64,000 nt of DNA from Nanobdellota archaeon (GCA_021818475.1 JAKADZ010000001.1:5997-69996); one strand, 5' to 3'; numbered from the stretch's first letter, positions 1 through 49,962 are shown. The notes: generated by a model not told the origin, from the letters alone. A program made the numbers and translations.

Positions 1-3000
1 CTGGAATTCCCATAAACATTTTTTAACCTTATATCAGATGTGCAAATTATCTGCCCATTTGCATCTGTTGTCAATGAACAGCTTTTTGCAGTTGTTTGAG
101 TTATATTTCCATTAACAGATAATTTTGCAATCGGGCTTGTTGTTCCTATTCCTACATTTCCTGTATTATTTTGTATGTATAATCTTGTTGCAGTTACAGG
201 GCTGTCAACAATAGAATATCCTCCATCACCCGGTCTTAATCCAGTAATCCAATTATAAGTTGCACCTGTTAAATATTGTAACTGTGCAGAATAAGTTATG
301 TTTCCTCTTGAAATATCTATTGCTGTCCCTGCGGAACTATTTACCATAAAATTATCTAATGGGCTTGTTGTTCCTATTCCTACACTTCCTGTTGAACCAT
401 CAATAACTAATGAAGGAGTATAAGTTAAAGCACTTGGGTCTGAACCATAAGCTTGACTATTAGTTGAACGTTGTATTACAAAATTAGGGTAACCTGATGT
501 TCCAAACCCTGTATATGCTGAACCTAATTTAACAGCTCCTTGAGTAGTCCCTAAATCATTTGTTAGATAAACCTGAGAACCATAATCCCCACTTCCAGTG
601 CTTTCTAACCATACGTGCTGATTTGTTGCTGCCCCGAATCTTGAAGTTCCTGCTACATCTAATGTTGCTTGTGGAGTATTTATTCCAATTGCAACATGAC
701 TCACAGGGAAAGCAACAGAATTATCTGTGATATTAAACCTTTGTAAAATGGCTCCTGTTTTTGAAATTCCAAAAATATCCTGACCTGGTGTCCCGAATGA
801 ACCAAACAAACCATGCCCTGTATTATTAACATCAACGACAAATTGTGCAGTCCCATTAACGTGTATTCCATTTGTTGCTGAAGAGCTGAGAACATCAAGA
901 GTATATTGAGGATTAGTTGTTCCTATTCCTACATTTCCCCCTGTTGCTGACAAGAAAACATTCCCTCCTGAATTAATTGATAAATTCTGCCAATTTGCAA
1001 AATTATCTGTTGATGCTCCTATCGCCACTGCACCAACTCCATTGTCTGTTCTCTTAAATACTTGAAGATGAAAATTACTTGCAGTTTGAACATCAAGAGG
1101 ACTATTAGGTAAAGTTGTTCCTATCCCTACATTTCCCGTTCCATTCTGAATTGTTAATCTATTTGTTGCTCCATTTTCATAAATAAAGAAATTTCCATTT
1201 GGATTTGGTCCTCCTCCAGAAGTCCCCATAGCCCATCCAAGATTATTCGCATTTGTATTTATAATATCTAATCCTATTGAATTAGTTGAAGTCCCATTTA
1301 TTAAAAGAGCATTTATTCCATTATAATTTAAAGTTAAAAAATTTGTCGGGCTTGTTGTTCCTATTCCTACATTTCCATTTCTAAGAATAGTCATCTTTGT
1401 TACATAAGGAGATGTTCCTGTCGCTGCAGTATCAAATAATAAATCTCCTCCTCCCCCAGATTGAAGAACAGTTCCAATTCTTGAAATATTATTTACTCCT
1501 GCACTATATCCAAAATTGATATAACTAGTTGTTCCAACACTTCCACCGCTTTGCCAAATTCCAAGGTTTGGAGAAGCAGAATTAATATCTAATATATCAT
1601 CTGGAGAAGTTGTTCCTATTCCAACATTTCCTGAAGTTCCATTAATAAACATTCTTGAAGTTAGAACATAATTTGTATTTGCAGTTAATCCAGAATTTCC
1701 AGAAAATAATAAGTTTCCCAAAGAATCAAACTGAATTACGGATGCGGCAGTTCCTTCCGTTTGCCAATAACCTGCCGTGTTATATTGAGCAGTTCCTACC
1801 CAAGCACCATTACCTGCAGTAACTTGTCCCATAGATAAACTTTGAACACTTGAAGTTCCTTGTTTTAGTTTAAATCCAGTATATCCTCCAATTCCCCCAG
1901 CAGCATTTATTTCTAAAGTTGCTCCTGGGCTTGTTGTTCCTATTCCTACATTCCCCGTTCCATTTGCAATTACTAAATCTTTAACATTTGTTGCACCATC
2001 TGCAATATAAAAATAACCTGCCAAAGGATTTGGTGTTACTGCTACTACTCCTGCATCCCATGCAGAAATACTGTTATTATATCTTATTATTGGATAATTT
2101 GAAGTTCCTGACCCTGCTAAAGTCTGCAACTGTAATAACACCTGAGGATTAGTTGTTCCTATTCCTACATAATTAGAATTTGCATTAACAAATAAAGTCC
2201 CTCCATTCACAGTTAGATTACTGGTTAAATTTGTAGTTCCAACAACGTTTAAAGTTGCCTGAGGATTGCTTGTTCCTATGCCTACATTCCCTCCTGTTCC
2301 CCCCATTAAATAAAGATTATTTCCAATTTGCATAGGGAGGTTTGTAGCATTTGAATAATTTCTTGCATTTAATATACCATAATTTGTGGTAGGGTCAAAA
2401 TTCATAACTATTGCTCCTGATGTTGAACCTAAATCATCATAAGTTGCACTTCCAGTTGAATAAATTCTTCCAGTTGATTTCAATGATGTTGCTCTTGCAT
2501 AACCATTAACATCTAAAGCTACATTAGGTGAGAGTGTTCCAATTCCTACATTCCCTGATTGGAGTATATTAAATACTCTTCCAGAAGAAGAAGTAGTTCC
2601 ATTAACTATGCTTAAAGAGTTAGTTCCATCTTGATTATAATCATTAATAATTGTCCATCTTGGAACATTTCCATCGGTTACAGTATTAATAAAATCAATT
2701 CTTGAAGCTCTGTTAGTTGCCCCGTTTCCTGCAATTAATTTTAAATCTGCTTGTCCTGTTCCCGCACTTGCATTAATATTTATTTGCGAACTTGTTCCTC
2801 CAGAACTTTGAATATCTAATAAAGCATTTGGACTGCTTGTTCCTATTCCTACATTTCCAGTTGTATTTTGAATAGTTAATCTTGTTGCAACTCCTGTTTC
2901 ATCAAAATATAAATTACCCCCAATATTATTTATATCCCATCTTTTCCCCGTGGAAAGTGCGTCTGTAGAATTAAAAATTATTGCTGTGTTATTCCCATCT

Positions 3001-4640
3001 ATCTGAATATACCCTGGACTTGCCCCCCCATTAATTTCTAATAATCTCTGAGGATTTGTTGTTCCAATTCCTACATTCCCCGTGTTAGTAATTATCATTC
3101 TTTGATTAGCACTTGCACTTCCTCCTGTGTAAAAATTTATATTTCCTAAAACACTTACTGCTCCAAGAGTTAGACCTCCAATATCATTTGCTTGTAAAAG
3201 TGTGCTATTTGGTTGTAAAATTCCGCTTCCAGTAAAGTTTGAATTTAAAAAAGCTAAATAACCATAATGTCCACCCGATGTAGATGAACCCATTAAAATT
3301 CTTGATAGTGCAGCGTTATCTGTGGTATCTGGATTTAAGAGATTTATTTGTGTAGCAGCATTTTGATTAACATTTATCTCTAGATTTGCACTCGGACTGC
3401 TTGTTCCTATTCCTACATAATTAGCAGGATTATTCAGATAAATATTACTTCCTGATTGATTCCATGCTGCATTGTTATAAACTGTGTTATTATAAGTTAA
3501 AATATTTTGATTAAATGAAGTGTTCGCAATTATCGACGCTGTCGCATTGTATAAATTTTGAATGTTTAATGTATTATTAATTGAACTAATCTGCAAATTA
3601 GTATAAACATTTGCAGGAGCTGTCTGATTAAATGCAAATTGAGAAATGTTTGTTCCTGCTAAAAGAGTTTGAATATTTAATGTATTATTTCCTATCCAGT
3701 TCCCGTTAAAATTAGAAGCATTGATGTATCCTGAAAAAAATCCGTTTCTCCAGTTATAATTAGAATTTCCTATATCAAATAAATTATTAAATGCAGGATA
3801 TAAACTTCCGTTTGTATTTATTGTGCTGACGTTTATTGAACTTATATTATAAACATAAATTGTCTGGGCAAATAAATTTCCGCCCGTAATGCTCACTCCT
3901 CCGCCGCTGAATCCGTTGTTAAAATCAACATTTCCCAATTTTATATTCGTCCCGTTGATTAAATTTTGAATATTTGCTGTGGTATTAATTAATCCAATTC
4001 TTGAATCAGTGTAAGAATTTGCCGGAGCTGTTTGATTATAAGTCCAAGTTGCATAAGTTGAGTTGTAAGTGGAATAAATTCCTGTCGAGTTAATTAAATT
4101 CTGAATGTTTGCTGTGGTATTAATAGAAGAAACATTCTGGCTTATCTTAATAAAAATTGCATCAGTTACCGAATGGACAAATGTTGAAAGATAAGATTCT
4201 AAAATATTTAATATTCCGTTGGAATTTGACATTTGCGTAGTATTAAAATTATCCATTCCCTGCCAGTTAGCTGAATTATTCGCATAAAAAGTGTAAGGAG
4301 TATAAGCAATTTTTGTGACGTTGATTAAACTATTATCCCTGTAGTAACAAAGCCAGTATTGGTCAGAATAATTCAGATTTGTATTTTCTAAATAATACGA
4401 AATTATTCCCCGTGAATCTGTTGTAAGAGTTGAAAAATTTGAATAAACAACATTTGCGCAGTCATTTGTTGTGGAAATATTAAATGTAAAAAGAAAAGTT
4501 CCTGTGGTGATGTCTCCTGAAGAATTTATTGCCTGAATGTTTAAGTGCAAATTATCATTGATGGGAGCAGATGAAACTAAACTTAATGCAAAAACTGAAA
4601 AAAAAATTATTAATGCAAATATCCCCCTTTTCACCATCAT
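1..4640 (-). CDS. Giant secreted tail-fibre-like repeat protein, partial (N-terminus at 4640, C-terminus beyond the left edge)
   Basis: My own minus-strand translation: ATG at 4640 gives MMVKRGIFALIIFFSVFALSLVSSAP, which looks like a signal peptide. The frame was confirmed at motif codons ending at 3417, 1374 and 3. There are 13 copies of G-N-V-G-I-G-T-T-(S/N)-P and the composition is N/T/S/G rich. TSDIRLKNVYG is encoded at 41..9. It is absent from the supplied ORF track, presumably because it has no in-window stop. Confidence 0.85.
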   Translation of the reverse strand, partial: MMVKRGIFALIIFFSVFALSLVSSAPINDNLHLNIQAINSSGDITTGTFLFTFNISTTNDCANVVYSNFSTLTTDSRGIISYYLENTNLNYSDQYWLCYYRDNSLINVTKIAYTPYTFYANNSANWQGMDNFNTTQMSNSNGILNILESYLSTFVHSVTDAIFIKISQNVSSINTTANIQNLINSTGIYSTYNSTYATWTYNQTAPANSYTDSRIGLINTTANIQNLINGTNIKLGNVDFNNGFSGGGVSITGGNLFAQTIYVYNISSINVSTINTNGSLYPAFNNLFDIGNSNYNWRNGFFSGYINASNFNGNWIGNNTLNIQTLLAGTNISQFAFNQTAPANVYTNLQISSINNTLNIQNLYNATASIIANTSFNQNILTYNNTVYNNAAWNQSGSNIYLNNPANYVGIGTSSPSANLEINVNQNAATQINLLNPDTTDNAALSRILMGSSTSGGHYGYLAFLNSNFTGSGILQPNSTLLQANDIGGLTLGAVSVLGNINFYTGGSASANQRMIITNTGNVGIGTTNPQRLLEINGGASPGYIQIDGNNTAIIFNSTDALSTGKRWDINNIGGNLYFDETGVATRLTIQNTTGNVGIGTSSPNALLDIQSSGGTSSQININASAGTGQADLKLIAGNGATNRASRIDFINTVTDGNVPRWTIINDYNQDGTNSLSIVNGTTSSSGRVFNILQSGNVGIGTLSPNVALDVNGYARATSLKSTGRIYSTGSATYDDLGSTSGAIVMNFDPTTNYGILNARNYSNATNLPMQIGNNLYLMGGTGGNVGIGTSNPQATLNVVGTTNLTSNLTVNGGTLFVNANSNYVGIGTTNPQVLLQLQTLAGSGTSNYPIIRYNNSISAWDAGVVAVTPNPLAGYFYIADGATNVKDLVIANGTGNVGIGTTSPGATLEINAAGGIGGYTGFKLKQGTSSVQSLSMGQVTAGNGAWVGTAQYNTAGYWQTEGTAASVIQFDSLGNLLFSGNSGLTANTNYVLTSRMFINGTSGNVGIGTTSPDDILDINSASPNLGIWQSGGSVGTTSYINFGYSAGVNNISRIGTVLQSGGGGDLLFDTAATGTSPYVTKMTILRNGNVGIGTTSPTNFLTLNYNGINALLINGTSTNSIGLDIINTNANNLGWAMGTSGGGPNPNGNFFIYENGATNRLTIQNGTGNVGIGTTLPNSPLDVQTASNFHLQVFKRTDNGVGAVAIGASTDNFANWQNLSINSGGNVFLSATGGNVGIGTTNPQYTLDVLSSSATNGIHVNGTAQFVVDVNNTGHGLFGSFGTPGQDIFGISKTGAILQRFNITDNSVAFPVSHVAIGINTPQATLDVAGTSRFGAATNQHVWLESTGSGDYGSQVYLTNDLGTTQGAVKLGSAYTGFGTSGYPNFVIQRSTNSQAYGSDPSALTYTPSLVIDGSTGSVGIGTTSPLDNFMVNSSAGTAIDISRGNITYSAQLQYLTGATYNWITGLRPGDGGYSIVDSPVTATRLYIQNNTGNVGIGTTSPIAKLSVNGNITQTTAKSCSLTTDANGQIICTSDIRLKNVYGNS

Positions 4641-4849
4641 ATTTTTAGGGCTTAAAGGTTTAAAAATCTTGTTGGAGAGTAGAGTAAAAATTTTCCCTAC
4701 CCTTAATAACCCCGTCGTGAAAATTTTGTTTTAAAGATTTTATTTCGCAAAAACAAAGAATTTTATTTTTTAATAAAAAATAGAATTAAATCAGGAAATT
4801 TTTGAAATTTTTTACTGCTAAATTCTTATCTTTTGAGGAAAGTTTGATA

Positions 4850-5057
4850 AAGAAACCGCGTAGGTTTCGTTCATCAGCCTTGAGCACACTTTCAAGGGGA
4901 AAATGATTGTAAAGAAACCGCGTAGGTTTCGTTCATCAGCCTTGAGCACACTTTCAAGGGGAAAATGATTGTAAAGAAACCGCGTAGGTTTCGTTCATCA
5001 GCCTTGAGCAGTATCTTAAAGGGAGATGTTGATAAGAAGAACCGATAAGGTTCTGCT
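4850..5057 (-). repeat. Tandem 62-bp repeat array (family A): three near-identical units plus one diverged unit
   Basis: The unit hairpin GAAACC starts at 4852, 4914 and 4976 (period 62), with a diverged unit at about 5039. On the minus strand each unit reads TGAACGAAACCTACGCGGTTTC...CCTTGAAAGTGTGCTCAAGGCTGA, with two 6-bp hairpins and a CTGATGA junction. Confidence 0.9.
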
Positions 5058-5058
5058 T

Positions 5059-5077
5059 ATGAGCCTACACGGATTTG
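5059..5077 (-). repeat. Duplicate of the 3' end of tRNA-Ile (19 nt)
   Basis: atgagcctacacggatttg at 5059..5077 is identical to 5170..5188 (T-loop/T-stem/acceptor 3' strand of tRNA-Ile), 111 bp further downstream on the tRNA strand. Confidence 0.9.
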
Positions 5078-5170
5078 GGCATCACTAAAGTTCAGCCTCA
5101 TTCGTCAAAGCCAAATGAAACCGCAAGCGGTTCAAATCAAGAAATAAAATCCGATTTGCAATCGGATAAA

Positions 5171-5299
5171 TGAGCCTACACGGATTTGAACCGTGGACCC
5201 CTGCCTTTCTTAGGATTCAATCGAGTCCTTGAAAACAAATTCCTAAACGGGATTTGCTCTTATAAGAGCAGTGCTCTAACCGGGCTGAGCTATAGGCTC
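5171..5299 (-). tRNA. tRNA-Ile (anticodon UAU) with an intron of about 54 nt at 37/38
   Basis: Manual fold: acceptor GAGCCTA/TAGGCTC, D arm GCTC-AGCCCGGTTA-GAGC, anticodon stem CTGCT/GGCAG, loop CTTATAA, T arm CACGG-TTCAAAT-CCGTG, discriminator A. Loop positions 32-35 (CTTA) pair with intron TAAG, followed by a 3-nt bulge, as in a bulge-helix-bulge (BHB) splice motif. Confidence 0.8.
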
Positions 5300-5398
5300 C
5301 TCATCTTTGTATCTGAGCCAGGATACTTTATTTATAACATCGGCTCCTCGTATAATTGAAACAAACTTAGTATATTTAAAATTTCTTATTTAGAAAAT

Positions 5399-5410
5399 AA
5401 TGCCCCGTCC
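5399..5410 (-). repeat. Duplicate of the 3' end of tRNA-Glu (12 nt)
   Basis: aatgccccgtcc at 5399..5410 equals 5528..5539. A degenerate T-arm copy (AACCCGAATCGAATCCGAGAG on the minus strand) lies at about 5462-5482. Confidence 0.75.
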
Positions 5411-5466
5411 AGCTCGAGCCTCCGCTCATTGCTATTATATTTTTTCCAGCACTCGTGAAAACTCTC
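5409..5466 (-). repeat. Dispersed repeat family C copy (TTTTCACGAGTGCTGGAAAA...GCAATGAGCGGAGGCTCGAG)
   Basis: By eye it aligns over about 60 nt with 8475..8536 (+) and over about 45 nt with 9824..9872 (+). Confidence 0.75.
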
Positions 5467-5529
5467 GGATTCGATTCGGGTTCCCCTCGCTTAAATCTTC
5501 AGAAAAAACAGGATTTACAATCCTGTAAA

Positions 5530-5678
5530 TGCCCCGTCCGAGATTCGAACTCGGGTTACAGCCTTCCTTTGCAGGATTCGGATGAATCCGAATGAAAGTA
5601 AAGTTCTTGCGAACTTTTCATTCAATCCGCTTTCGCGTCTTGAAAGGGATGTGTCCTTGGCCTCTAGACTAACGGGGC
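5530..5678 (-). tRNA. tRNA-Glu (anticodon UUC) with a 76-nt highly structured intron at 37/38
   Basis: Acceptor GCCCCGT/ACGGGGC, D arm GTCTAGAGGCCAAGGAC (as in canonical tRNA-Glu), stem CATCC/GGCTG (one T-C mismatch), loop CTTTCA-intron-A, variable TAAC, T arm CCGAG-TTCGAAT-CTCGG. CTTT pairs with intron AAAG, followed by a GAA bulge. Confidence 0.75.
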
Positions 5679-5763
5679 ATAAAACCGTTAAGAGACTCCC
5701 TTAATGACAGTAAGGAGAGAAAAAATTAGTTTTTAAACATAACTAATAGACTATAGCCTTGAA

Positions 5764-6081
5764 TTATTCAAATTTTTTTATTAATTCATCTTTTATCATT
5801 TTTTTCTTTTCTTTTGAAATATTGAACAGAAAAGATTTAATCATTTTCTCAGAGATAGTAAATATATAATTTAATTTTATTACACTATCTTTTGGCATAC
5901 CCTCTTGTTTTGTCAAAGAAATTCCTTTCATCTTTAAATTGCTGGTTATCCCTGCAACTACAACATTCCCCTGTTCTTCAAATAAAATCAATGCAGGTCT
6001 TGTTTTAACTTCAAATGTGTCTGTATATTGGACTTCCGCTAAAACTACCTGACCAAAATTAAATTTCATCCCAAATTTCAT
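5764..6081 (-). CDS. MazF/PemK-like toxin (type II toxin-antitoxin)
   Basis: 105 aa from MKFGMKFNFGQVVLAEV...RPALIL...VVAGITSN, which resembles a PemK fold. The start overlaps the end of the upstream small gene. The track's longer ORF (to 6144) would overlap the antitoxin by 86 nt. Confidence 0.65.
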   Translation of the reverse strand: MKFGMKFNFGQVVLAEVQYTDTFEVKTRPALILFEEQGNVVVAGITSNLKMKGISLTKQEGMPKDSVIKLNYIFTISEKMIKSFLFNISKEKKKMIKDELIKKFE

Positions 6082-6286
6082 CCTCTTTATTATTCCATAA
6101 TTCTTCCATTTTAGGCTGCTGGATTTTATGCAGGAACTCATCATACTGATTTCTCTTCTTTAGAATAATAAACGTTTTTGCCATCTTTTCTAATAATTCA
6201 CTGTAAGTTTGTCGGGGGTGATCTTTTGCTTCCTTGAGCAGTTCAATCACTTTTTTATCTATCAGGATAGTTGAATCTTTTACCAT
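6059..6286 (-). CDS. Putative antitoxin partner of the MazF-like toxin
   Basis: 75 aa starting at ATG 6286 (MVKDSTILIDKKVIELLKEAK...). The track's start at 6307 is a TTG. A TTTATATA box lies about 27 nt upstream of the ATG, and the gene overlaps the toxin start by 23 nt. Confidence 0.55.
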   Translation of the reverse strand: MVKDSTILIDKKVIELLKEAKDHPRQTYSELLEKMAKTFIILKKRNQYDEFLHKIQQPKMEELWNNKEDEIWDEI

Positions 6287-6365
6287 ATATAAGTTATTAT
6301 ATATCAACTATATAAATATTTTTATATTAAATTTAGATAAACAAATTAATTAAGGGCAGAAAAGA

Positions 6366-7721
6366 CTAAATTTTCTTAACCATATAACTATCTTCCAATT
6401 TATATCCCAACTTACGATAATATTCTCTTACTCCTATTCCTGAGATTACCAGAATTTTTTTTGCACCCTCTGCTTTTGCTATTTTTTCAGCTTCTTTCAT
6501 CAGCATTTTCCCCATTCCTCGATGCTGGCTTGCTGCCGAAGATTTTTTATGAATTTCTAATGATTTTCCATAAACATGAAGTTCTCTGACAATTGCAGTT
6601 TTATCTTTTCTTGGTCTAAGTCTCAAAAGTCCGAATAGAATATCTTCATCATTTACTATTTCAATGAAAAATTCTTTGCCTTCAGAAGCATCATATCTTG
6701 TAACTTTCAATTTCATATTAATATTTTCAGTAGGATTGAACCCAATCTCTCTGAATCTTATTTCAACAATTTTATTTTTTTGTCTTCTTAATTTTTCTTC
6801 AACGTCTTTTCTTAAGTCAATTTTAGTAGTCCCTGCAATAAGATATTCCGGGGGAATCTCCCTCATAATTCTCATGACTCTGCAATATCGCGGAACAACT
6901 CTCAGCATTTCAATAAGGAGATTTTCAATCTGTTCTTTTGTATACGGCTTGTATCTCTTTTTCCAGAAATCTTTTTCAAGTTCTGCCCCTTTAATTATCT
7001 GGCACGGATAAATTTTAAGCTGATCTGGTTTAAATCTTTCATCAGAAAAAATTTTTTTGAAAAGTTCTAAATCTTTTTTTTCATTGCTTCCTGGAAGGCC
7101 GGGCATTATGTGATAACCAACTTTAAATCCGGCGTCTTTCAGCGCCTTTGTCGCATCAGCAACATCTTTCACAGAATGTCCCCTCTTTATCTTTTTGTAA
7201 ATTTTATCATCGGGCATCTGAACCCCAAGCTCGACTCTTGTTACACCAAAATCTCTCATTTCTTTTATGTACTGAATGCAGTCATCAGGCCTGGTCTCGA
7301 CGCAAAGTGCAACACATCTATGTTTGGATTTTTCATTTAATTTCTGTGCTTCAGTCAAACTCTTTGAAACCTTTTCATTGAGGGCATCAAAACATTTTTT
7401 TATAAAATCATTTTTGAATTTCTTTGGATACTGCAAAAAAGTCCCCCCCATAATTATCAGTTCAATTTTTTCAGTCGGATGATGCATAACTTCAAATGCT
7501 TTTATTCTTGCTTTAACCTGCTCATAAGCGTCGTATTTAACTTCAGACGCTCTCATGACAACAGGACTTTTTGGGGTATAACTTTGGGGGACATTTAAAG
7601 AAGGGCAATAAGTGCATGTCCCATGTTTGCAAGCTCTTGGAGGAAGCATTACTGCTACAGGAGTAATCCCGGAAATAGTCTTAGTCGGTTTTCTTATTTC
7701 ATTTTTCTTTGGATTTAACAT
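6366..7721 (-). CDS. elp3: Elp3-type radical SAM/GNAT tRNA modification enzyme
   Basis: 451 aa with an N-terminal CKHGTCTYC cluster motif and a C-terminal GNAT motif QHRGMGKMLM, colinear with archaeal Elp3. Confidence 0.85.
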   Translation of the reverse strand: MLNPKKNEIRKPTKTISGITPVAVMLPPRACKHGTCTYCPSLNVPQSYTPKSPVVMRASEVKYDAYEQVKARIKAFEVMHHPTEKIELIIMGGTFLQYPKKFKNDFIKKCFDALNEKVSKSLTEAQKLNEKSKHRCVALCVETRPDDCIQYIKEMRDFGVTRVELGVQMPDDKIYKKIKRGHSVKDVADATKALKDAGFKVGYHIMPGLPGSNEKKDLELFKKIFSDERFKPDQLKIYPCQIIKGAELEKDFWKKRYKPYTKEQIENLLIEMLRVVPRYCRVMRIMREIPPEYLIAGTTKIDLRKDVEEKLRRQKNKIVEIRFREIGFNPTENINMKLKVTRYDASEGKEFFIEIVNDEDILFGLLRLRPRKDKTAIVRELHVYGKSLEIHKKSSAASQHRGMGKMLMKEAEKIAKAEGAKKILVISGIGVREYYRKLGYKLEDSYMVKKI

Positions 7722-7761
7722 AATATCTCCTTATCGATATTCCTTTTAAAATTATCTAGAA

Positions 7762-7998
7762 TTATTTTTTATTCTCACGCTTTATAACAAAATAGTAAAT
7801 TAATGCTCCGATGAAATAAGTTAATATAATCACAAGAACCCAGATTATTTTTTCAGTGTCATTTTTGAATTTTCTTTTTACACAATCAATAAGCATTAAA
7901 ATCCAGAATACGAATGCAAATACTGCAAGCCCGAATGCAATTAACGCAAAAAAGAATCCAAAAAACCCGACTCCCCACATCATGTTTGTCCAATCCAT
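7762..7998 (-). CDS. Small membrane protein, PLD-nuclease N-terminal (PLDc_N)-like
   Basis: 78 aa with two TM helices and the pattern WILMLIDCVKR...IIWVLVIILTYFIGALIYYF. Confidence 0.6.
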   Translation of the reverse strand: MDWTNMMWGVGFFGFFFALIAFGLAVFAFVFWILMLIDCVKRKFKNDTEKIIWVLVIILTYFIGALIYYFVIKRENKK

Positions 7999-8058
7999 AA
8001 TTTAACTAATGAAAAAGAGTTTAAAAATATTTTTAAAGATTATTTCCCTGCCTTATCT

Positions 8059-8358
8059 GTGACAGAAAAAAGATTAGTTGCTAAAAAACCAGTTGCAAAG
8101 AAAAAACCTAAACCCCTGACAGAAGAGGAATATAATTATTCCCTTGAACAAGAAGTTATTAATATACTAAAATTAAGAGGACTTTATTCTGATATAGAAG
8201 AATTTGCAAAAAGATATTACCGTTCATGTTCTCCAAATATGCGGAAAAATTATCCTAAATTTGAATATTTCAAGGAATTTTTAGAATATCAAACCCAGGA
8301 ACACATAAAAAATCTCGAGAAAATTGTGAGGCAAAAATATTCCAAGGGCTTGCCTTAA
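8059..8358 (+). CDS. Hypothetical Lys-rich protein (GTG start)
   Basis: 99-aa ORF with no in-frame ATG near the 5' end and no recognisable motif. Confidence 0.4.
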   Translation: MTEKRLVAKKPVAKKKPKPLTEEEYNYSLEQEVINILKLRGLYSDIEEFAKRYYRSCSPNMRKNYPKFEYFKEFLEYQTQEHIKNLEKIVRQKYSKGLP

Positions 8359-8408
8359 TAAAACATCTTTTCTAATCACTAAATCCTTTTAAATTAATTT
8401 TACTTTAT

Positions 8409-8474
8409 CGTCGTATGGAAATCAGCCTTGAGCAAGACTTTCAGTGGGAAAGTCAGGCGAACGAAACCGGAGGC
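8409..8474 (-). repeat. Diverged family A unit
   Basis: atcagccttgagcaagactttcagtgggaaagt matches atcagccttgagcacactttcaaggggaaaatg of the 4850 array. Confidence 0.6.
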
Positions 8475-8536
8475 GAGAGTTTTCGCGAATGCAAAGAAAA
8501 TCTTAAATGCAATGAGCGGGGGCTCGAGTAAGTCGC
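8475..8536 (+). repeat. Family C repeat copy abutting the start codon of the MTAP-APRT gene
   Basis: gagagttttcgcgaatgcaaagaaaatcttaaatgcaatgagcgggggctcgagtaagtcgc aligns with the minus strand of 5409..5466. Confidence 0.7.
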
Positions 8537-9823
8537 ATGGGGAAATTAAAGATTGGTATAATCGGAGGGAGTGGACTGGAAGATCCAAATCTCCTCGATG
8601 ATTATAAAGAAAAAGAGGTGGATACTCCGTTTGGTAAACCTTCATCTAAATTAATCACAGGAAAATTATTCGGAATTGATGTTGTAATAATTTCACGCCA
8701 CGGAAAGAAACACGAGATTCCTCCGACGCAGGTGAATAATAAAGCAAACATTTTTGCACTAAAATATGAGGGATGCAAATACATTTTGGCAACAACTGCA
8801 GTTGGTTCTTTAAGAGAAGAAATCAAACGCGGCGATTTTGTAATCCTTGACCAATTCATTGATTTTACAAAAAGAAGAGATGTAACTTTTTATGACAAAT
8901 TTGAATTCGGGGCAATTCATACTCCGATGGCAAATCCATTCTCTGAAAAATTGAGAAAAAAATTAATTGAAGCATGTTCTGAATTCAATTTCTCTCATCA
9001 TAAAACCGGGACAGTTATTACAATCGAAGGTTCAAGATTTTCAACAAGAGCAGAGAGTTATATGTTCCGCCAATGGGGGGCAGACGTAATAAATATGTCA
9101 ATAGCTCCAGAAGCAATTTTAGCAAATGAAGCAGAAGTTGAATATGCAACAATAGCAATGACTACAGATTATGACTGCTGGAAAAACGATGAGGAGCCGG
9201 TGAGCTGGGAGATGGTAAAAGAAATTATGAAAGATAATGTAGAGAAAGTAAAAAAAATTTTATTGAGGGTTGTTGAATCTTTTTCAAGGGAAGAAGAAAT
9301 AAGGAAGTTAAAAGAAAATATCAGAACTATTCCTGATTTCCCAAAACCCGGGATTATGTTCCGCGATATTACTACATTGCTGAAAGATAAGGAAAATGTG
9401 AAAAAGCTAATTGATCTTTTTTATGACAGATATAAAGAAATGGAAATAGATGCTATCGCCGGAATAGAATCGAGGGGATTTGCACTTGCGGGAATGCTTG
9501 CAGGCAGATTGGGTACAGGATTGGTTTTAATAAGAAAACCGGGAAAACTTCCTGCTGAAACAATTTCAGAAGTTTATAATCTGGAATACGGGGTTGACAG
9601 CGTTGAAATTCATAAAGATTCAATTTCTCCCGGACAAAAAATCCTTTTAATAGACGATTTAATAGCAACAGGCGGAACAGCCGGAGCATCATGCAAATTA
9701 ATCGAAGCACTTAAAGGGGAAATTGTCGAATGTTGTTTTGTAATCGAACTTCCCGATTTAAAAGGAAAAGAAAAATTAGCAAGATATCCTGTTTTCTCTC
9801 TGATTAAGTTTGAAGGCGAGTGA
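8537..9823 (+). CDS. mtnP-apt: Fusion protein: 5'-methylthioadenosine phosphorylase (N-terminal) plus adenine phosphoribosyltransferase (C-terminal)
   Basis: 428 aa. The N-terminal ~255 aa carry IGIIGGSGL, ISRHGKKHEIPP and TTDYDCW. The C-terminal ~170 aa carry PDFPKPGIMFRDIT, IAGIESRGF and LLIDDLIATGGT. Confidence 0.85.
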   Translation: MGKLKIGIIGGSGLEDPNLLDDYKEKEVDTPFGKPSSKLITGKLFGIDVVIISRHGKKHEIPPTQVNNKANIFALKYEGCKYILATTAVGSLREEIKRGDFVILDQFIDFTKRRDVTFYDKFEFGAIHTPMANPFSEKLRKKLIEACSEFNFSHHKTGTVITIEGSRFSTRAESYMFRQWGADVINMSIAPEAILANEAEVEYATIAMTTDYDCWKNDEEPVSWEMVKEIMKDNVEKVKKILLRVVESFSREEEIRKLKENIRTIPDFPKPGIMFRDITTLLKDKENVKKLIDLFYDRYKEMEIDAIAGIESRGFALAGMLAGRLGTGLVLIRKPGKLPAETISEVYNLEYGVDSVEIHKDSISPGQKILLIDDLIATGGTAGASCKLIEALKGEIVECCFVIELPDLKGKEKLARYPVFSLIKFEGE

Positions 9824-9872
9824 TTTCACGAGTGCTGGAAATTTAGTATTGCAATGAGCGAGATCAGGAGCA
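9824..9872 (+). repeat. Family C repeat copy directly after the stop codon of mtnP-apt
   Basis: tttcacgagtgctggaaatttagtattgcaatgagcgag matches the minus strand of 5409..5466. Confidence 0.7.
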
Positions 9873-9918
9873 GACCCTTTTCTAAGAATAATAACCATTT
9901 GAAAAGATATTTTTAACA

Positions 9919-10668
9919 TTAAGCAGAACTCGAAACTGAACAGACACATTGGGCAACAACTTTGCCATTAACTGTTTCTCCGCCTGTATTTGTCGGATAA
10001 AAATTTACGCCGCCGCAATTGCTTGCAGTTCCGCTTACATCTGCTTGTTCAACATAATTTGTAACCAAGCCAATAAAACTTCCGCTGATTGCAGAGCATG
10101 CAGAATTACATGGGACTTGCCAGATAGTATTTGTCGTAGGATTAGCCGGACGATAAGCACTGGCACTGACATACATTGCCCCGCTGCATGACGCAACTGA
10201 ATAAAATTTTGAATCAACTTTGCTTCCAACCTGGTCGCTTCCTCCTGAATTTAAAACAGGAGCAATGTCAATTTCTGTTGGAACCGAGATACTTCCTAAA
10301 TCACTTGGAGAAAAAGTAAAAGTCTGGCTTCCCAGTTCCTGAATTGAAGTGCTTTCTTTTACTACCTGACTATTTTTGCCGTCAGAAAAAACAAAATCTA
10401 TTCCGGTCAAATCTCCCTGCCCGGTCCCTCTGGAAATTGTAACAAGATAATTTCCATTTGAGTCAACTAAAACTTTGTCAATTTTTAAATCAAGGAATAA
10501 AGTTCCGAACTGAAAGCTTGCCTGCTGTGTTCCTGATTTTAACATATTTGAAACAACAACCCAGACAACTCCGATTGCAACTAAAGATAAAACAATTATT
10601 ATTAATGTGACGACAATATCTGACAAACCTTTCTTATCCCTTACTTCATTCACCTTTCTTTTTTTCAT
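9919..10668 (-). CDS. Archaeal type IV pilin-like protein (class III signal peptide)
   Basis: 249 aa. KKG|LSDIVVTLIIIVLSLVAIGVVWVVVS is a typical prepilin/archaellin-like N-terminus, and 36 aa are identical to the product of 38204..38686. Confidence 0.75.
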   Translation of the reverse strand: MKKRKVNEVRDKKGLSDIVVTLIIIVLSLVAIGVVWVVVSNMLKSGTQQASFQFGTLFLDLKIDKVLVDSNGNYLVTISRGTGQGDLTGIDFVFSDGKNSQVVKESTSIQELGSQTFTFSPSDLGSISVPTEIDIAPVLNSGGSDQVGSKVDSKFYSVASCSGAMYVSASAYRPANPTTNTIWQVPCNSACSAISGSFIGLVTNYVEQADVSGTASNCGGVNFYPTNTGGETVNGKVVAQCVCSVSSSA

Positions 10669-10720
10669 CTAATAAATTAGGTTTTTTTATTTTTAAATTA
10701 TTGTTTTGTTACCCATTAAG

Positions 10721-10846
10721 ATTAGGTGTCGTAATCAGTCTTGAACCTCTCTCAAAGGAAAGTTTGATAAAGAAAACGATTAGGTGTCGTAATCAGTCTT
10801 GAACCTCTCTCAAAGGAAAGTTTGATAAAGAAAACGATTAGTTGTC
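10721..10846 (-). repeat. Tandem 58-bp repeat (family A variant), two full units plus a partial third
   Basis: attaggtgtc recurs at 10721 and 10779, and atta at 10837 (period 58). The array begins at the stop codon of the upstream minus-strand gene. Confidence 0.85.
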
Positions 10847-11659
10847 TTTATATTTGAAGATTCCGTAAAAATAATTTCCTCTGTCATCATACTTAAAAAA
10901 TGATTGTCTGTCTTTATCATTCAAAAAATCTCCTATCTCTTTGGTATTTATTGTGTCTGAATCAAAATTCATATTCATTTCTGCTTTTAACGACGGCCAT
11001 TTTCCAAGGCTTACAAAATTTATTTCAAAATAATCATTTTCAAAAGAAGGGAGTCTGTCAAGTTTATACCCAAACTGTACCAAATTGTTGTTATACCCTT
11101 TGAACAAAAAAACAAACCTTACTGCATCAAGAAGATTGCAGTTATCCATAAGATTCTGAAAAGTCTGATTGGGTTTTGTTTTTTTGATTTCTTTTAATAC
11201 CCTGCTGTAACGGAGATAACTATATGCGATTAAATCTTCGATATTGTCCTGTGGTTTAAAATCTTCAGCAAAAAATTTTCCCAAATCTGTTTTCTCATGA
11301 ATTTCAATTTTTTTAAAGGGGAATCTGCTCTTAATCAGGGAGAGATAATCAGAATATTCTTTTTCATCTTCTGATTTCAGGAATTTATCTGCAATATCAA
11401 AAAGCTGAACTTCTTTTACTTCATTTATTGCCGCACGGATAGGCCTGAAAAAAGAAAAATTCTCCCCATCATTCATAATAGTTACTAAATCTGCTTTTCT
11501 GTCTGAGTTAAAATCATAGATATCCAGGGATAAATTTTTTTCTCTTACTTCTGTTTCTGTTTTGCTGACAGGAATAATTTCATAGTCTTTTGCTTCTGAT
11601 TGTGCAATAAGTAAACTTCCGCTGAGTGCAAGACTTAGCAATAATTTTTTCAGTTTCAT
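10838..11659 (-). CDS. Secreted hypothetical protein
   Basis: 273 aa with a signal-peptide-like N-terminus, MKLKKLLLSLALSGSLLIAQSEA. Confidence 0.6.
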   Translation of the reverse strand: MKLKKLLLSLALSGSLLIAQSEAKDYEIIPVSKTETEVREKNLSLDIYDFNSDRKADLVTIMNDGENFSFFRPIRAAINEVKEVQLFDIADKFLKSEDEKEYSDYLSLIKSRFPFKKIEIHEKTDLGKFFAEDFKPQDNIEDLIAYSYLRYSRVLKEIKKTKPNQTFQNLMDNCNLLDAVRFVFLFKGYNNNLVQFGYKLDRLPSFENDYFEINFVSLGKWPSLKAEMNMNFDSDTINTKEIGDFLNDKDRQSFFKYDDRGNYFYGIFKYKDN

Positions 11660-11736
11660 AAGTGGAATGCGAAAATGTTCTTTATTAAATTTATGTAAAT
11701 AAGATAGTTTTTTAATTTGTATTTCTATCTAATCTT

Positions 11737-12339
11737 ATGAAGCCCAATCAAAAAGAAGTATGGAACAGAATTGCAGAAGAGTGGTATGAATTTAAGACTT
11801 CTCCTGCAGAACATGTTTTAAGATTCTTAAAAGGTAAGAAAGGGAAAATACTTGACTTAGGTTCAGGGGCAGGAAGACATCTAAAAAAAATCAGAAATGG
11901 AAAAATGTATCTTGTTGATTTTTCTGAGAATATGATAAATCTTGCAAAGAAAAAGGCAGAACAAAAAAAAATAGATGCAGAATTTTTTGTTTCTGATCTG
12001 GCAAAACTCCCATTTGAAGATAATTTTTTTGATGCAGCAATTTTTATTGCTGCTCTTCATTGTATTGAAGGGGAGAAAAACAGAAAAAAAACAGTTGAAG
12101 AGCTTTATCGGGTTCTTAAGCCAAAAGCCAAGGCTGAAATTGCAGTATGGAATAAAAATTCAAAGAAATTCATGAAGTCTGCAAAAGAGAGGTATGTAAA
12201 ATGGAGAGAAAAAGGGGAAAGGTATTATTATCTCTTTGATGCAGATGAAATCTATAAATTATTTGAACAGGCAGGATTTAAGATAACATTTAAAGAAGAA
12301 CCGACAAGAAATATAGTTTTTGAAGTTCAAAAAATATAA
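11737..12339 (+). CDS. Class I SAM-dependent methyltransferase
   Basis: 200 aa with motif I ILDLGSGAGRH and a Methyltransf_11-like layout. Confidence 0.75.
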   Translation: MKPNQKEVWNRIAEEWYEFKTSPAEHVLRFLKGKKGKILDLGSGAGRHLKKIRNGKMYLVDFSENMINLAKKKAEQKKIDAEFFVSDLAKLPFEDNFFDAAIFIAALHCIEGEKNRKKTVEELYRVLKPKAKAEIAVWNKNSKKFMKSAKERYVKWREKGERYYYLFDADEIYKLFEQAGFKITFKEEPTRNIVFEVQKI

Positions 12340-13734
12340 TTATTCTTCTCTCTCTTTCTTAATCTGCTCTGCAATGAAGAAAGCATGATTTGATTCAGCT
12401 TCGTGAACTTCTCCGTCTTTCTCAAAAATAGCAGTTGTTGTAGGAAGAGCAAACTTTCCAAGGACACCGACTTTAGAATAAATTATATATGATAATATTC
12501 TTGTTTCTCCTTCCTGTAATTTATCAAAATGCCATTCTATTCTTTTATTTGCTTCATCAACTTTTCTTGGCATTTCTCCTCCGAATTTTTCATGAAGTTT
12601 TACCAGAGGAGGAAGTCTGTCTATGATATTTACTTTCTCAACAAATTTTCTTGCATTAACAACTATTGAAACTTTCAGCGCAAATTCTCCGCCCTTTGCC
12701 CTTACAAAACTTACTTTCTTCTTGAGTGACAGGCTGGTCTTTGAAAATTGTTTGGTTAGGATGACAATAGCAATTACCAATAAAACTGCAAGCAGAGGCA
12801 ATAGCCAGTTAGTTGTTACAACAATCTGCAGCTGGTCTCCTGGTTTTAATTGCCTTTCCCAGGTATAATAAACAACAAGTCCTTCTCTCTGAACTAAATC
12901 TGGTTCAGGACTGAATGTGGTGAAAAGTCTCGACAGTATATTTTTCTTTAGAACAGTTGTTGAACTTGAGATGACATTCCCTTCATTTACTTTTGTTATT
13001 TTTTTTGTATTAATTATAAATCCATATTCATCCTGAGAACTTGTGACAATATCTTTTTCTGAGAATTCCATAACTCCCTGAACATTTGTATTTTTATTAT
13101 TTGCAGTAATTTCAGCATTTAATGTGTAATATCCTGCCATTAAATCCCTAAACTGCTCTTTATTCAAGGTTATCTCAAAACTTTTCTTTTCATAAGGGTC
13201 CAACGAAATTGTCCTCTCAAAATTAAAAAAAGGAGATTTGAAAGCTACATTTATATTGTCAAAATTAAAATTCGCTAAATTTTTTATATAAACTGAAACA
13301 TTATTTGAGTCTGGTTTGAATTCTTCTGCGCCAACTTCAAATGCCTGATCTAATGTTATCACATTTACTGTCAGAGGATATGTTGCCTGATCGCCATTTT
13401 GTCCTTTTACATAAACATCAAAAGTTACCCTCCCTGTCTGGGTCATATCATCTCTTGGATAAATTCCAATCTGAATATCTTTTGTTTCACCTCCTCCTAT
13501 CTGAACAGTTCCTTTAGGGAACATACTTGAACCAAAAAAATTGTAGAACATTAAATTATCACTGGGACCCATGTTTGTGACATTCAAATCGAAAATTGCA
13601 GGCATATCAAGTCCGCGGATCATTGCAACATCCTGTGTTTCCTGCTGAACATTTAATGTCAATGCAGAAACTGAAGGTAAAATAATCATAGAAAATAGAA
13701 TCAACATCACCAAAACTCTTTTTTCCATAAACAA
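12340..13734 (-). CDS. Secreted, membrane-anchored hypothetical protein with a DUF11-like C-terminal domain
   Basis: 464 aa with a signal peptide and a TM helix (LLPLLAVLLVIAIVILT). The C-terminal pattern DRLPP...W.F..L..GE...LSY resembles the conserved repeat domain. Confidence 0.55.
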   Translation of the reverse strand: MFMEKRVLVMLILFSMIILPSVSALTLNVQQETQDVAMIRGLDMPAIFDLNVTNMGPSDNLMFYNFFGSSMFPKGTVQIGGGETKDIQIGIYPRDDMTQTGRVTFDVYVKGQNGDQATYPLTVNVITLDQAFEVGAEEFKPDSNNVSVYIKNLANFNFDNINVAFKSPFFNFERTISLDPYEKKSFEITLNKEQFRDLMAGYYTLNAEITANNKNTNVQGVMEFSEKDIVTSSQDEYGFIINTKKITKVNEGNVISSSTTVLKKNILSRLFTTFSPEPDLVQREGLVVYYTWERQLKPGDQLQIVVTTNWLLPLLAVLLVIAIVILTKQFSKTSLSLKKKVSFVRAKGGEFALKVSIVVNARKFVEKVNIIDRLPPLVKLHEKFGGEMPRKVDEANKRIEWHFDKLQEGETRILSYIIYSKVGVLGKFALPTTTAIFEKDGEVHEAESNHAFFIAEQIKKEREE

Positions 13735-13788
13735 AATGAGAATAATTTGTATTTAAACATTTCGTTAAGAATTTTTTTGATTTCTTAA

Positions 13789-14292
13789 TTATCTTTTTCC
13801 TTCCAGATCAAGGTATGCTTTTGCCTGTGATAAAAATCCGTCGCAGTCTGATGCAATTTTTCCCTGAAACTCTTCAACTCTCTCGGGTATAACAAATTTT
13901 TCATAAACACTTCTTATGAATTTTTGAAATCCTGTTTTCTCAAATTTCCCTTTGTAATCTCTTACCAGAGTCCCTTTAATGCTGACTTCCACACTTCCTT
14001 TGTTTGTTTTTATTTTCTTTCCGTCCTCTGTAATCTCGACGGGAGTGAGTCCATTTCCTGCTAAAGACACTTTTACTTCCATCTTAAAATAATCAGACAT
14101 TTCTCTTGCACCTGACCAGTCTGCATTAATTGTTTTCGAATCTCCGCTTAATTTTTCAGAATATTTATCCTCGGAAACCCCAAGACCCATTTCATCTTTC
14201 AGCCAGTCATAACAGAATTTATAAAAATCTGCGAAGTTGACAATTCCGCTGTATTTTATTTTGCTTGCAAATATCTTATCTTTTTCTGCCAT
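13789..14292 (-). CDS. Hypothetical protein
   Basis: 167-aa ORF with no recognisable motif. Confidence 0.5.
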   Translation of the reverse strand: MAEKDKIFASKIKYSGIVNFADFYKFCYDWLKDEMGLGVSEDKYSEKLSGDSKTINADWSGAREMSDYFKMEVKVSLAGNGLTPVEITEDGKKIKTNKGSVEVSIKGTLVRDYKGKFEKTGFQKFIRSVYEKFVIPERVEEFQGKIASDCDGFLSQAKAYLDLEGKR

Positions 14293-14380
14293 TGTAATCT
14301 AATAAAAATAGCAAACTTAATTTAAATATTTAACTAGAAAGAGCAATAAAATTTAAAAACAAACATTATCCATCTTTTTT

Positions 14381-14734
14381 ATGGAAAAATATTTTTTGCA
14401 GGATGATATAATTATAGGACATAAATTAATTGTGAATGATGCTAAACCCTTTGGGAAAAAATTATCACTGCAGGATGTTTATTACAATGAATTTATCGGG
14501 GAAGTCAGAAGGGGGCTGGAAGAAATTCCGTTTTATGAAGTGACCGGTTATATGGGGTCTTTTATCCGATATAATATGGAGTTAAACAAAATAAATCATA
14601 TTTCTTTCCGAAATGGCGGGCAGGGAGCAGGAAAAACTGACTTAGAAAAACGAATAAATCTTTTGCAGTATAGATTTGCTGATTCTTATCTGAAAAAAGC
14701 ATTAAAAATTCTTGAAGGGCAGATTAAACATTAA
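14381..14734 (+). CDS. Hypothetical protein
   Basis: 117-aa ORF that overlaps the convergent CBS gene by 4 nt. Confidence 0.45.
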   Translation: MEKYFLQDDIIIGHKLIVNDAKPFGKKLSLQDVYYNEFIGEVRRGLEEIPFYEVTGYMGSFIRYNMELNKINHISFRNGGQGAGKTDLEKRINLLQYRFADSYLKKALKILEGQIKH

Positions 14735-19653: not shown

Positions 19654-19654
19654 T

Positions 19655-45344: not shown

Positions 45345-45373
45345 TTCACAAGTTATACAATTTATGAACAAAA

Positions 45374-45387
45374 AGGTGTATACACCT
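45374..45387. promoter_or_regulatory. Perfect 14-bp palindrome AGGTGTATACACCT (candidate operator)
   Basis: Abuts the TATA-like box of the downstream operon, whose first gene encodes a ribbon-helix-helix (RHH)-like protein. Confidence 0.55.
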
Positions 45388-45401
45388 AAATCTTTAAATA
45401 G
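45388..45401 (+). promoter_or_regulatory. BRE/TATA-like box AAATCTTTAAATAG
   Basis: Lies about 25 nt upstream of ATG 45423 and shares AATCTTTAAATAG with 27776..27789. Confidence 0.5.
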
Positions 45402-45422
45402 TAGCGATTTCTTATTTTTATT

Positions 45423-45596
45423 ATGGTTTTAAAGAATCATGATTTAAGCGGGGAAGAGAGGAAGATTGTTTCTACAAGATTGTATAAGAGTGAATTCCTT
45501 TTTTTCAAGAAACTATGTGACCAGGAAGGCAAAACAATAAATACAAAACTCCGAGAGATGATTAGAGAAGAGACTGGGTTGGAGGAGGAAGAATAA
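45423..45596 (+). CDS. Ribbon-helix-helix (CopG-like) small protein, candidate controller
   Basis: 57 aa, below the track cutoff: MVLKNHDLSGEERKIVSTRLYKSEFLFFKKLCDQEGKTINTKLREMIREETGLEEEE, which fits a beta-strand/helix/helix pattern. Confidence 0.55.
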   Translation: MVLKNHDLSGEERKIVSTRLYKSEFLFFKKLCDQEGKTINTKLREMIREETGLEEEE

Positions 45597-45754
45597 TGGG
45601 AGATGATTTAGATAAAGCAATAAAAATTGGATTAGGATTACTTGGGGGTTTTATTTTATTGAATATCTTGTTTCCTGAAATTAAATGTAAAGTATGTGGA
45701 AGAAGTTTTCCTTCTGGGAGAGAAAGATGTCCGCATTGTGGAGCGGAAAAATGA
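45596..45754 (+). CDS. Small TM protein with a C-terminal zinc ribbon
   Basis: 52 aa: MGDDLDKAIKIGLGLLGGFILLNILFPEIKCKVCGRSFPSGRERCPHCGAEK. Its start overlaps the previous stop (TAATG). Confidence 0.5.
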   Translation: MGDDLDKAIKIGLGLLGGFILLNILFPEIKCKVCGRSFPSGRERCPHCGAEK

Positions 45755-46014
45755 GTCTAGATTTTGATATTGAAAAAACTATAAAACCTTTTGTTAAAGG
45801 GAGTTCACTTGGTTTAATGATATGTTCCTTAATTCTTTTATTTATCCATTACAATTTTAATAAATACTTTGGATTTTTAGTTCCAAATTGGATAGTTTTT
45901 ATTTTATGGATATATTTTATTGGTAATTCAATTGCATTATTTCTTTTTTTAAGGAACAATTTATTTGAATGCCCCAACTGCAAAAGGAGGCATAAGGAAA
46001 GAAAAAATGGATAA
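45751..46014 (+). CDS. Two-TM small protein ending in a CPNC motif
   Basis: 87 aa from MSLDFDIEK, with an ATGA overlap to the previous gene. The track's longer version (45694) would overlap that gene by 61 nt. Confidence 0.5.
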   Translation: MSLDFDIEKTIKPFVKGSSLGLMICSLILLFIHYNFNKYFGFLVPNWIVFILWIYFIGNSIALFLFLRNNLFECPNCKRRHKERKNG

Positions 46015-46636: not shown

Positions 46637-46734
46637 GCAAGATACCTTGCTTCTGATGCTTTTAAAAAAGAAGATGCAAATAAAATACTTGTTACAATTG
46701 AAGAGATGATTAAATTTGCAGAGGATTCAATAAA

Positions 46735-48980: not shown

Positions 48981-48981
48981 A

Positions 48982-49959: not shown

Positions 49960-49962
49960 AAC

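Follow-up and report, generated by a model that had tools for sequence, protein, structure and literature searches.

The locus examined here raises the question of whether a giant protein resembling phage tail fibres, encoded in what looks like a DPANN archaeal genome, belongs to a virus or to the cell and, if to the cell, what it would do there. It lies at the left end of a 64,000-nt stretch of DNA from a Nanobdellota archaeon (GCA_021818475.1 JAKADZ010000001.1:5997-69996; hereafter the window, meaning this whole stretch), where an initial annotation, made from the sequence alone, had noticed a long open frame with repeated VGIGTT-type motifs and had suggested a trimeric, self-processing fibre on an archaeal cell. 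On the basis of current results, the whole is best explained by an adhesion fibre that is secreted, forms trimers and processes itself, its base being conserved and its tip changing fast, a reading that we consider probable. Our confidence is high for the fibre architecture and its self-processing, and evenly balanced for a role in adhesion to a partner or host cell.

Translation of the minus-strand frame (4640→3) gave 1546 codons with zero stops, which bears out the claim of more than 1540 aa from an ATG at 4640 to the window edge (window 4640->1); the interrupting stops that had been named as a possible refutation occur nowhere in these 1546 codons, and the last codons in view read ...KSCSLTTDANGQIICTSDIRLKNVYGNS, as had been written. 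The gene is indeed absent from the ORF (open reading frame) track, and the cause is mechanical, because the track leaves out any ORF that is cut by an edge of the source. Only two other ORFs of at least 60 aa are present inside 1-4640, each of 65 aa. An exact search of genome and metagenome contigs with the first 70 nt of the window returned no match. A protein search retrieved a complete protein of 1646 aa (P0001) that is 100% identical to the window fragment and is encoded on seven public contigs. One of these contigs (L001) reproduces window positions 1-14,640 without mismatch and continues for 6,010 nt further left. The features of the complete gene, in window coordinates unless otherwise stated, are as follows.

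4659..4666, minus strand: TATA-like box TTTTTAAA, lying 19-26 nt before the ATG
4566..4640, minus strand: predicted signal peptide, aa 1-25 (MMVKRG / IFALIIFFSVFALSLV / SSA), cut predicted before P26
4263..4565, minus strand: base domain, aa 26-126, six-strand beta-sandwich with two invariant Cys (C61, C98)
3453..4262, minus strand: neck, aa 127-396, repeat-containing and sequon-rich, common to 56 homologues at 33-69% identity
39..3452, minus strand: shaft and tip, aa 397-1534, with 13 modules (39-183 aa each) and one degenerate loop (654-698)
3393, 3051, 2829, 2526, 2262, 2145, 1926, 1602, 1347, 1107, 909, 360 and 132 (low coordinates), minus strand: 13 capping-loop motifs, found by pattern match
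42-80, minus strand: distal loop C1521...C1533, part of the tip, just before the cleavage site
codon 36-38, minus strand: S1535, predicted nucleophile and cleavage site, in the SDIRLK motif
codon 21-23, minus strand: K1540, predicted general base, in the SDIRLK motif
3..38, minus strand: first 12 residues (SDIRLKNVYGNS) of the S74 domain, the other 100 being encoded beyond the left edge of the window (L001 14641-14941)

Recovery of the C-terminus and a scan for the Peptidase_S74 chaperone domain (PF13884) had been set beforehand as the test of the fibre prediction. The domain was found on aa 1535-1585 above its curated cutoff (34.9 bits against 22, E 1.9e-8, profile positions 1-56 of 58); the window-only fragment gave no Pfam match, because only 12 S74 residues lie inside the window. 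The initial annotation had recognised SD-x-RLK-x-N as the junction motif of such domains, and S1535-D-I-R-L-K1540 sits exactly at the domain start. An alignment of 12 S74-bearing homologues showed all five defined residues of SDxRLK (S, D, R, L and K) to be invariant, together with a downstream G..A.......P. A profile of the C-terminal 237 residues matched solved S74/ICA (intramolecular chaperone) structures, namely a tail fibre (8JOV, 2.9e-20), a long tail fibre distal subunit (6F45, 1.4e-16), human MYRF (7DC3, 4.5e-14), the T5 L-shaped fibre (8HQZ, 2.3e-7) and phi29 gp12 (3GUD, 5.8e-3). In the AlphaFold2 (AF2) model the S74 part had a pLDDT (predicted local distance difference test) score of 81-94 and the last ~40 residues formed a long helix. 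Foldseek with this model was significant only to the MyRF ICA (7DC3; E 4e-4, TM (template modelling) score 0.56-0.61 on the target), and 3GW6 and 4UW8 ranked next without being significant. The fibre carries an S74/ICA domain in which the SDxxxK Ser/Lys motif is intact, and this motif would be expected to support trimer-dependent autoproteolysis that releases the chaperone.

A search for (G/N)(N/Y/S)VGIGTxxP retrieved all 13 copies that had been reported, every one within 7 nt of the coordinate given earlier (aa 407, 521, 595, 696, 784, 823, 896, 1004, 1089, 1169, 1235, 1418 and 1494). They are spaced 39-183 aa (117-549 nt) apart, and 20,000 residue shuffles gave a mean of 0.0002 copies and a maximum of 1. 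A degenerate 14th copy, HVAIGINTPQATLDV, was identified at aa 1315 (window 654-698), inside the longest gap. Each shaft module ends in (R/K)-h-x-I-x-N-x-x-G-N-VGIGTxxP-x-x-x-L-(D/E)-(I/V). In the MAT (mosaic adhesive trimer) fibres of Bdellovibrio bacteriovorus, a capping loop with the consensus V-G-G/N-pi-x-x-P-x-x-x-L closes the edges of the beta-helix (Caulton et al. 2024, PMC10769870). The repeat matches this consensus, and it is therefore predicted that the protein contains 13-14 beta-helix modules; judged from its sequence, VGIGTxxP forms the capping loops of a triple-β-helix shaft. The earlier description of VGIGTT-P as a tail-fibre-type motif agrees both with the published capping-loop consensus of S74 fibres and with PHROG tail-fibre families, two of which match the shaft (1e-25 and 3e-22). 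Among solved structures (phmmer), the shaft has its best matches in the Bdellovibrio MAT fibre Bd2133 (8OND, E 1.5e-12 over aa 396-614) and in 8OML (E 1.8e-5). At the distal end, the Cys...Cys-(T/S)-S-D arrangement is kept in the closest S74-bearing relatives. It should be noted that short-k Logan contigs of one DNA run break and cross-join precisely at the ~30-nt repeated motif DNA (window 130-3440); the order of the shaft modules is backed by the seven contigs with the identical 1646-aa protein, despite this ambiguity of the assembly graph.

Between base and shaft, the neck has four (T/L)xNIQ(N/T)L repeats (aa 178, 223, 322 and 359) and two NQTAPAN repeats (aa 202 and 338), and gave no Pfam or PHROG match; the fibre also had no match in NCBIfam. 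N-x-S/T sequons are concentrated in aa 131-396, and the neck is the richest part of the protein (7.5 per 100 aa).

A signal-peptide-like start had been claimed, and the N-terminal residues (MMVKRGIFALIIFFSVFALSLVSSA) have the expected Sec-type layout, that is, a basic n-region, a 16-residue hydrophobic core (best 15-residue hydropathy 2.82) and small residues ahead of the predicted cut. Most of the homologues that share the base domain have equivalent N-termini, with small residues (SA/SS-A) right before the conserved domain. A Sec-type signal peptide is thus predicted by heuristic sequence features. Upstream of the ATG, the TATA-like box TTTTTAAA has the usual archaeal TATA spacing and is a probable promoter, from which a leaderless mRNA would start. 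Between the neighbouring tRNA and the fibre gene, a 62-nt unit is perfectly repeated in tandem (2.6 copies, window 4848-5010); each unit contains a hairpin GAAACC-tacgc-GGTTTC, and the intergenic DNA around it is 97% identical in a sister genome.

The most distinctive part of the fibre is the base domain (or N-domain) behind the signal peptide, which the initial annotation had overlooked. Its consensus is LHLNIQ..G..GTF.F.FNIS..C..Y..LTTDSRGIISYYL..L..QYWLCYYR..L..R.PY.F, with 20 invariant columns in the alignment, and AF2 modelled it confidently as a six-strand beta-sandwich (pLDDT 82). No Pfam match was found for it. Of the 118 homologues, 71 share residues 24-130 at 43-95% identity, and these 71 proteins otherwise differ in length (855-2,700 aa), in shaft and in C-terminus. 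The family was delimited by an exhaustive profile search of 1.84 billion representatives, as a word-index search had given only 32 short fragments; 607 representative clusters contain the domain, 202 of them at E ≤ 1e-30. In all 150 listed matches the domain is N-terminal, starting at residue ~20-70 directly behind the signal peptide, and the longest of these proteins has 5,130 aa. Species genomes in GTDB contributed 94 loci that encode the domain, and 77 of the 80 listed carry archaeal labels, mostly DPANN (Woese-, Pace- and Nanoarchaeota, one 'ainarchaeum' and unnamed archaea). The other three are labelled bacterial: one of them (L037) is archaeal, with a thermosome gene adjacent, and two (L041 and L055) are too short to judge. 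With regard to L037 (DAITPU010000001.1, a 237-kb contig), the label 'bacterium' appears wrong, and its 875-aa N-domain gene is directly followed by one for a 1077-aa protein with Laminin_G_3 and a dockerin. No description of this domain, or of S74- or MAT-like fibres in DPANN archaea, was found in the searchable literature.

Does such a protein belong to a virus or to a cell? The initial annotation had assumed a DPANN-like archaeal cell. In agreement with this, two tRNA genes of the window carry introns, and the thermosome has its best named relatives in Pacearchaeota and Nanoarchaeota metagenome-assembled genomes (MAGs; 86-87% identity). The window also encodes a class I aminoacyl-tRNA synthetase, a type I restriction-modification system and Ig-like surface proteins, the fibre itself is surrounded by housekeeping genes, toxin-antitoxin-like cassettes and surface-protein genes, and the sequences come from mine-drainage metagenomes. 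Genes for capsid, virion, tail, terminase or integrase functions were found neither among the called neighbours nor among the scanned ORFs of the window. The locus lies on a Pacearchaeota-type DPANN chromosome and not in a virus.

Nevertheless, the fibre might be the receptor-binding protein of a virion or tailocin, made by an integrated virus or a phage-tail-like particle, rather than a cell-surface protein. The PHROG tail-fibre matches and the S74 domain could be read in this way, as could the toxin-antitoxin-like cassettes nearby and an att-remnant-like arrangement beside the fibre gene, where the 3' 17-mer of an intron-bearing tRNA (5171-5299, minus strand) recurs without change ~95 nt downstream (AAATCCGTGTAGGCTCA, 5060-5076; 0.01 expected by chance). 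We regard this as very improbable. The N-terminus resembles a Sec signal peptide, which virion fibres lack; none of the structural or integrase genes just listed was found among the called neighbours or the scanned ORFs; the gene occupies the same chromosomal position in the sister genome; and the base is absent from the 2.9 million viral contigs of IMG/VR and lacks any relative among viral folds. Matches to phage proteins reach only 27-32% identity and are confined to the S74 domain or part of the shaft. The hypothesis of an integrated element was itself rejected as unsupported, since the tRNA 3'-end repeat has two copies, ~110 nt apart, with no third copy in the window or in L001 to bound the cluster. 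With respect to the earlier suggestion that the protein may be of viral origin, one part stands and the other does not: viral fibres have the shaft and chaperone modules in common with this protein through deep ancestry, but the data do not support recent acquisition from a virus or a position inside a provirus, given the low phage identity, the chromosomal synteny and the lack of the base in viral contigs.

If the fibre is cellular, its variation between close relatives may indicate what it does. The sister genome (L083) has the same ten upstream genes in the same order, and eight of the nine flanking proteins compared are 88-97% identical; the remaining one is 62% identical. At the same position it encodes a fibre (P0002) of 1164 aa that ends in a true stop and shows no more than 41% overall identity. 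Identity is 90-100% over residues 1-150, patchy over 150-400 and ~20-50% beyond 400, and P0002 has a different end without S74. From these alignments, the base was kept while the shaft and tip were replaced or diverged very fast. The family as a whole is also mosaic. Among 98 N-domain proteins of at least 500 aa, 74 have at least three capping loops and eight have an S74 end, and a Pfam census of 58 members revealed seven with S74, five with YadA_stalk, three with a phage tail Collar, two with FGE-sulfatase, one with GH43 and a few others, most tips being without annotation. A constant base with S74 and non-S74 tips, the mosaic trait of MAT fibres, is thus seen both in the N-domain family and in the sister-genome comparison, and, in line with the logic set out for MAT proteins (PMC10769870), a molecule that recognises a changing ligand would be expected to show such a pattern. 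It may be added that the 62% identical flank, a 273-aa protein without Pfam match (window 10838-11659, minus strand), is a second fast-evolving gene of the region.

The closest characterised system is the MAT family, whose members have a signal peptide, a conserved beta-rich N-domain (~130 aa) without close PDB relative, a trimeric beta-helix and variable tips (Caulton et al. 2024, PMC10769870). Thirteen of the 21 members in Bdellovibrio end in S74 with SDxxxK; in Bd3182, self-cleavage at the Ser was demonstrated and was blocked by S782A; and relatives bind prey surface glycans (PMC10769870). The window fibre resembles the S74 subgroup (Bd3182) in being cell-encoded, with a predicted signal peptide, a beta-rich domain behind it, a capping-loop beta-helix and an optional S74, in a shaft directly homologous to 8OND, and in belonging to a mosaic family with constant base and variable tips; the producer of the MAT fibres, Bdellovibrio, also lives off other cells. 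Its ~100-aa, all-beta and highly conserved base is analogous in position to the MAT N-domain and likewise has no close PDB relative. Unlike MAT proteins, it belongs to an archaeal envelope without outer membrane, its base is almost confined to DPANN, and it has 1646 aa rather than ~1000, with about one gene per genome seen as against 21 in Bdellovibrio.

Other systems share fewer parts. Phage S74 fibres (K1F endosialidase 3GW6, T5 pb1 4UW8/8HQZ, phi29 gp12 3GUD, 6F45 and 8JOV) have the C-terminal S74 with SDxRLK, the triple-beta-helix shaft before it and the PHROG tail-fibre matches in common with the window fibre, in which a signal peptide and a cellular base replace the virion-attachment N-terminus and whose context is chromosomal. 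The ICA of eukaryotic MYRF (7DC3) is a self-cleaving, trimerising domain of the same type with a preceding capping-loop motif, and is the best fold match, but MYRF is a membrane-bound transcription factor whose cleavage frees a nuclear fragment and matures no fibre. YadA-family trimeric autotransporters are also modular trimeric surface fibres, and five N-domain members carry YadA_stalk; however, they have a C-terminal outer-membrane beta-barrel with the N-terminal head outward, whereas the window fibre has an N-terminal base, a C-terminal tip and no barrel. Among DPANN archaea, the SPEARE proteins of Nanohaloarchaeum antarcticus are very large surface proteins proposed for host interaction. 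They have a different domain content and are not known to carry S74 or a capping-loop shaft.

The S74 domain was first described on endosialidases and tailspike-like enzymes (Pfam calls it 'Chaperone of endosialidase'), GH43 occurs in one member of the N-domain family, and Castelle et al. 2021 proposed wall-degrading large proteins in Woese- and Pacearchaeota. It could be imagined on these grounds that the beta-helical shaft or tip is a polysaccharide depolymerase of the endosialidase or tailspike kind that digests the capsule or wall of a partner, rather than a pure adhesin. Such an enzymatic spike seems improbable to us, because no catalytic domain was found in the fibre (Pfam, NCBIfam and PDB sequence search) and its shaft modules match non-enzymatic beta-helix segments of MAT fibres.

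For the preferred reading, a secreted adhesion fibre, we infer export, trimerisation, self-cleavage, base anchoring, the ligand and the biological role in the following scheme. The Sec-type signal peptide (aa 1-25) would export the chain, and the base sandwich (aa 26-126) would serve as the cell-proximal anchor, presumably docking on an envelope component. It would be followed by the sequon-rich neck (127-396) and a shaft (397-1534) of 13-14 triple-beta-helix modules closed by the VGIGTxxP loops. The S74 domain (1535-1646) would bring three chains into register, so that the interdigitated shaft could fold from the tip, and autoproteolysis by Ser1535/Lys1540 after S1535 would then release a 12.3-kDa chaperone. 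Cleavage would expose the distal module with its Cys1521-Cys1533 loop as the likely binding end, whose ligand on a partner or host cell is most likely a polymer of the surface and probably a glycan. The mature chain (26-1535) has a computed mass of 157.5 kDa before glycosylation, and a rough scaling from Bd2133 (370 aa ≈ 142 Å) gives a shaft length of ~44 nm.

Several observations weigh against this scheme. Fold searches with the base against PDB and BFVD gave generic Ig-like matches only, with no close solved or viral relative. No lectin or receptor-binding domain was recognised at the tip by Pfam scans. For the last two shaft modules, monomer modelling with AF2 (pLDDT ~40) was uninformative, as expected for an interdigitated trimer. 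Sequon enrichment over the whole fibre was not significant (51 against 43.6 expected from composition; 205 of 2000 shuffles reach 51). The fibre contig had zero RNA coverage in three small metatranscriptomes of the same study, which does not show absence of expression. N-domain genes were seen at about one per genome, as compared with the 21 MAT paralogues noted above.

A tip with no recognised receptor-binding domain and about one copy per genome are also what might be expected of a general adhesin or matrix fibre of the same architecture and self-processing, which would attach to minerals, biofilm matrix or sister cells and not to a specific host. Both the mine-drainage community from which the sequences come and the family members with generic adhesin parts, such as YadA stalks, are compatible with this, but we consider it unlikely overall: replacement of shaft and tip amid neighbours that are mostly 88-97% identical is easier to reconcile with a biological ligand that varies than with an abiotic one that stays constant, and the closest characterised relatives recognise glycans on the surface of prey cells. 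The initial annotation had regarded the protein as an obvious candidate for host attachment, and this proposal is strengthened by the homology to the prey-recognition fibres of Bdellovibrio together with the shaft and tip replacement in the sister genome.

A more specific proposal, which we offer only tentatively, is that the base marks a dedicated partner-recognition cassette in a subset of DPANN archaea, in which tips are swapped behind the base from phage and bacterial modules and the tip sets the host. Such a cassette would be a single locus, in MAGs labelled Woese-, Pace- and Nanoarchaeota, whose base plugs into the envelope, possibly via two membrane proteins of 376 and 415 aa encoded nearby; its module pool would comprise S74, YadA stalk, collar, lectin-like and GH43 parts, recombined just behind the base. 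If this is true, the replacement in the sister genome records a switch of host or receptor.

The genes to the left of the window on L001 are listed below.

L001 15011-16357: gene for a 448-aa protein with a lipobox-like N-terminus (...LLFGGC), 70 nt downstream of the fibre stop
L001 16474-17396: nucleotidyltransferase and small partner, downstream of the fibre here and directly upstream in the sister genome (L083 9036-10008)
L001 17393-18523 and 18520-19767: two overlapping genes for proteins of 376 and 415 aa

The 448-aa protein has no Pfam or NCBIfam match and no homologue in the other 80 loci fetched, and was rejected as a conserved partner of the fibre. The nucleotidyltransferase cassette, of which only the L083 copy has a HEPN Pfam match on record, may be a mobile cassette that flanks the variable locus. 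In the 376- and 415-aa proteins, a signal peptide is followed by an ectodomain that is Cys-rich or a beta-sandwich and, at the C-terminus, by a transmembrane helix, with no Pfam match above threshold and NCBIfam matches below threshold only. Homologues of these two proteins were found downstream of N-domain genes in six of the 30 evaluable loci and upstream in four more, and they offer a weak lead to an envelope partner or anchor of the base.

On the other side of the fibre gene, a PemK-type toxin (101 aa, 5764-6069, minus strand) overlaps a 75-aa upstream partner (6059-6286, minus strand); this likely toxin-antitoxin pair lies between the tRNA and an Elp3-like radical SAM gene. A 472-aa protein with Bact_surface_Ig-like and Big_13 domains adjoins a 490-aa ORF without Pfam match (18235-21127, minus strand), and both may be surface proteins. 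The type I restriction-modification system consists of hsdR (42594-45344) and hsdM (49963-51420) with three unannotated ORFs between them, and the region 42594-51420 has a GC content of 27-31% against ~33% and a strong positive GC skew. The second tRNA gene, with a long insertion (61982-62092, 111 nt, minus strand), was found by Rfam and missed by ARAGORN.

Little is known of the means by which DPANN archaea locate their hosts and stay attached to them, and most of these organisms are uncultured. The fibre locus, from a tiny and probably symbiotic archaeon, provides a defined and testable candidate. The base domain could serve as a search handle for the adhesin in MAGs, and the tips could be expressed as probes to label or fish hosts, which would aid co-cultivation. 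No paper linking DPANN archaea with S74 fibres or MAT proteins was found in the searchable literature, and our results extend the S74/capping-loop module, known from phages, bacteria (MAT) and eukaryotes (MYRF), to archaeal cells. Such a distribution supports the view that viruses and all three domains of life draw on one common set of modules to recognise cell surfaces.

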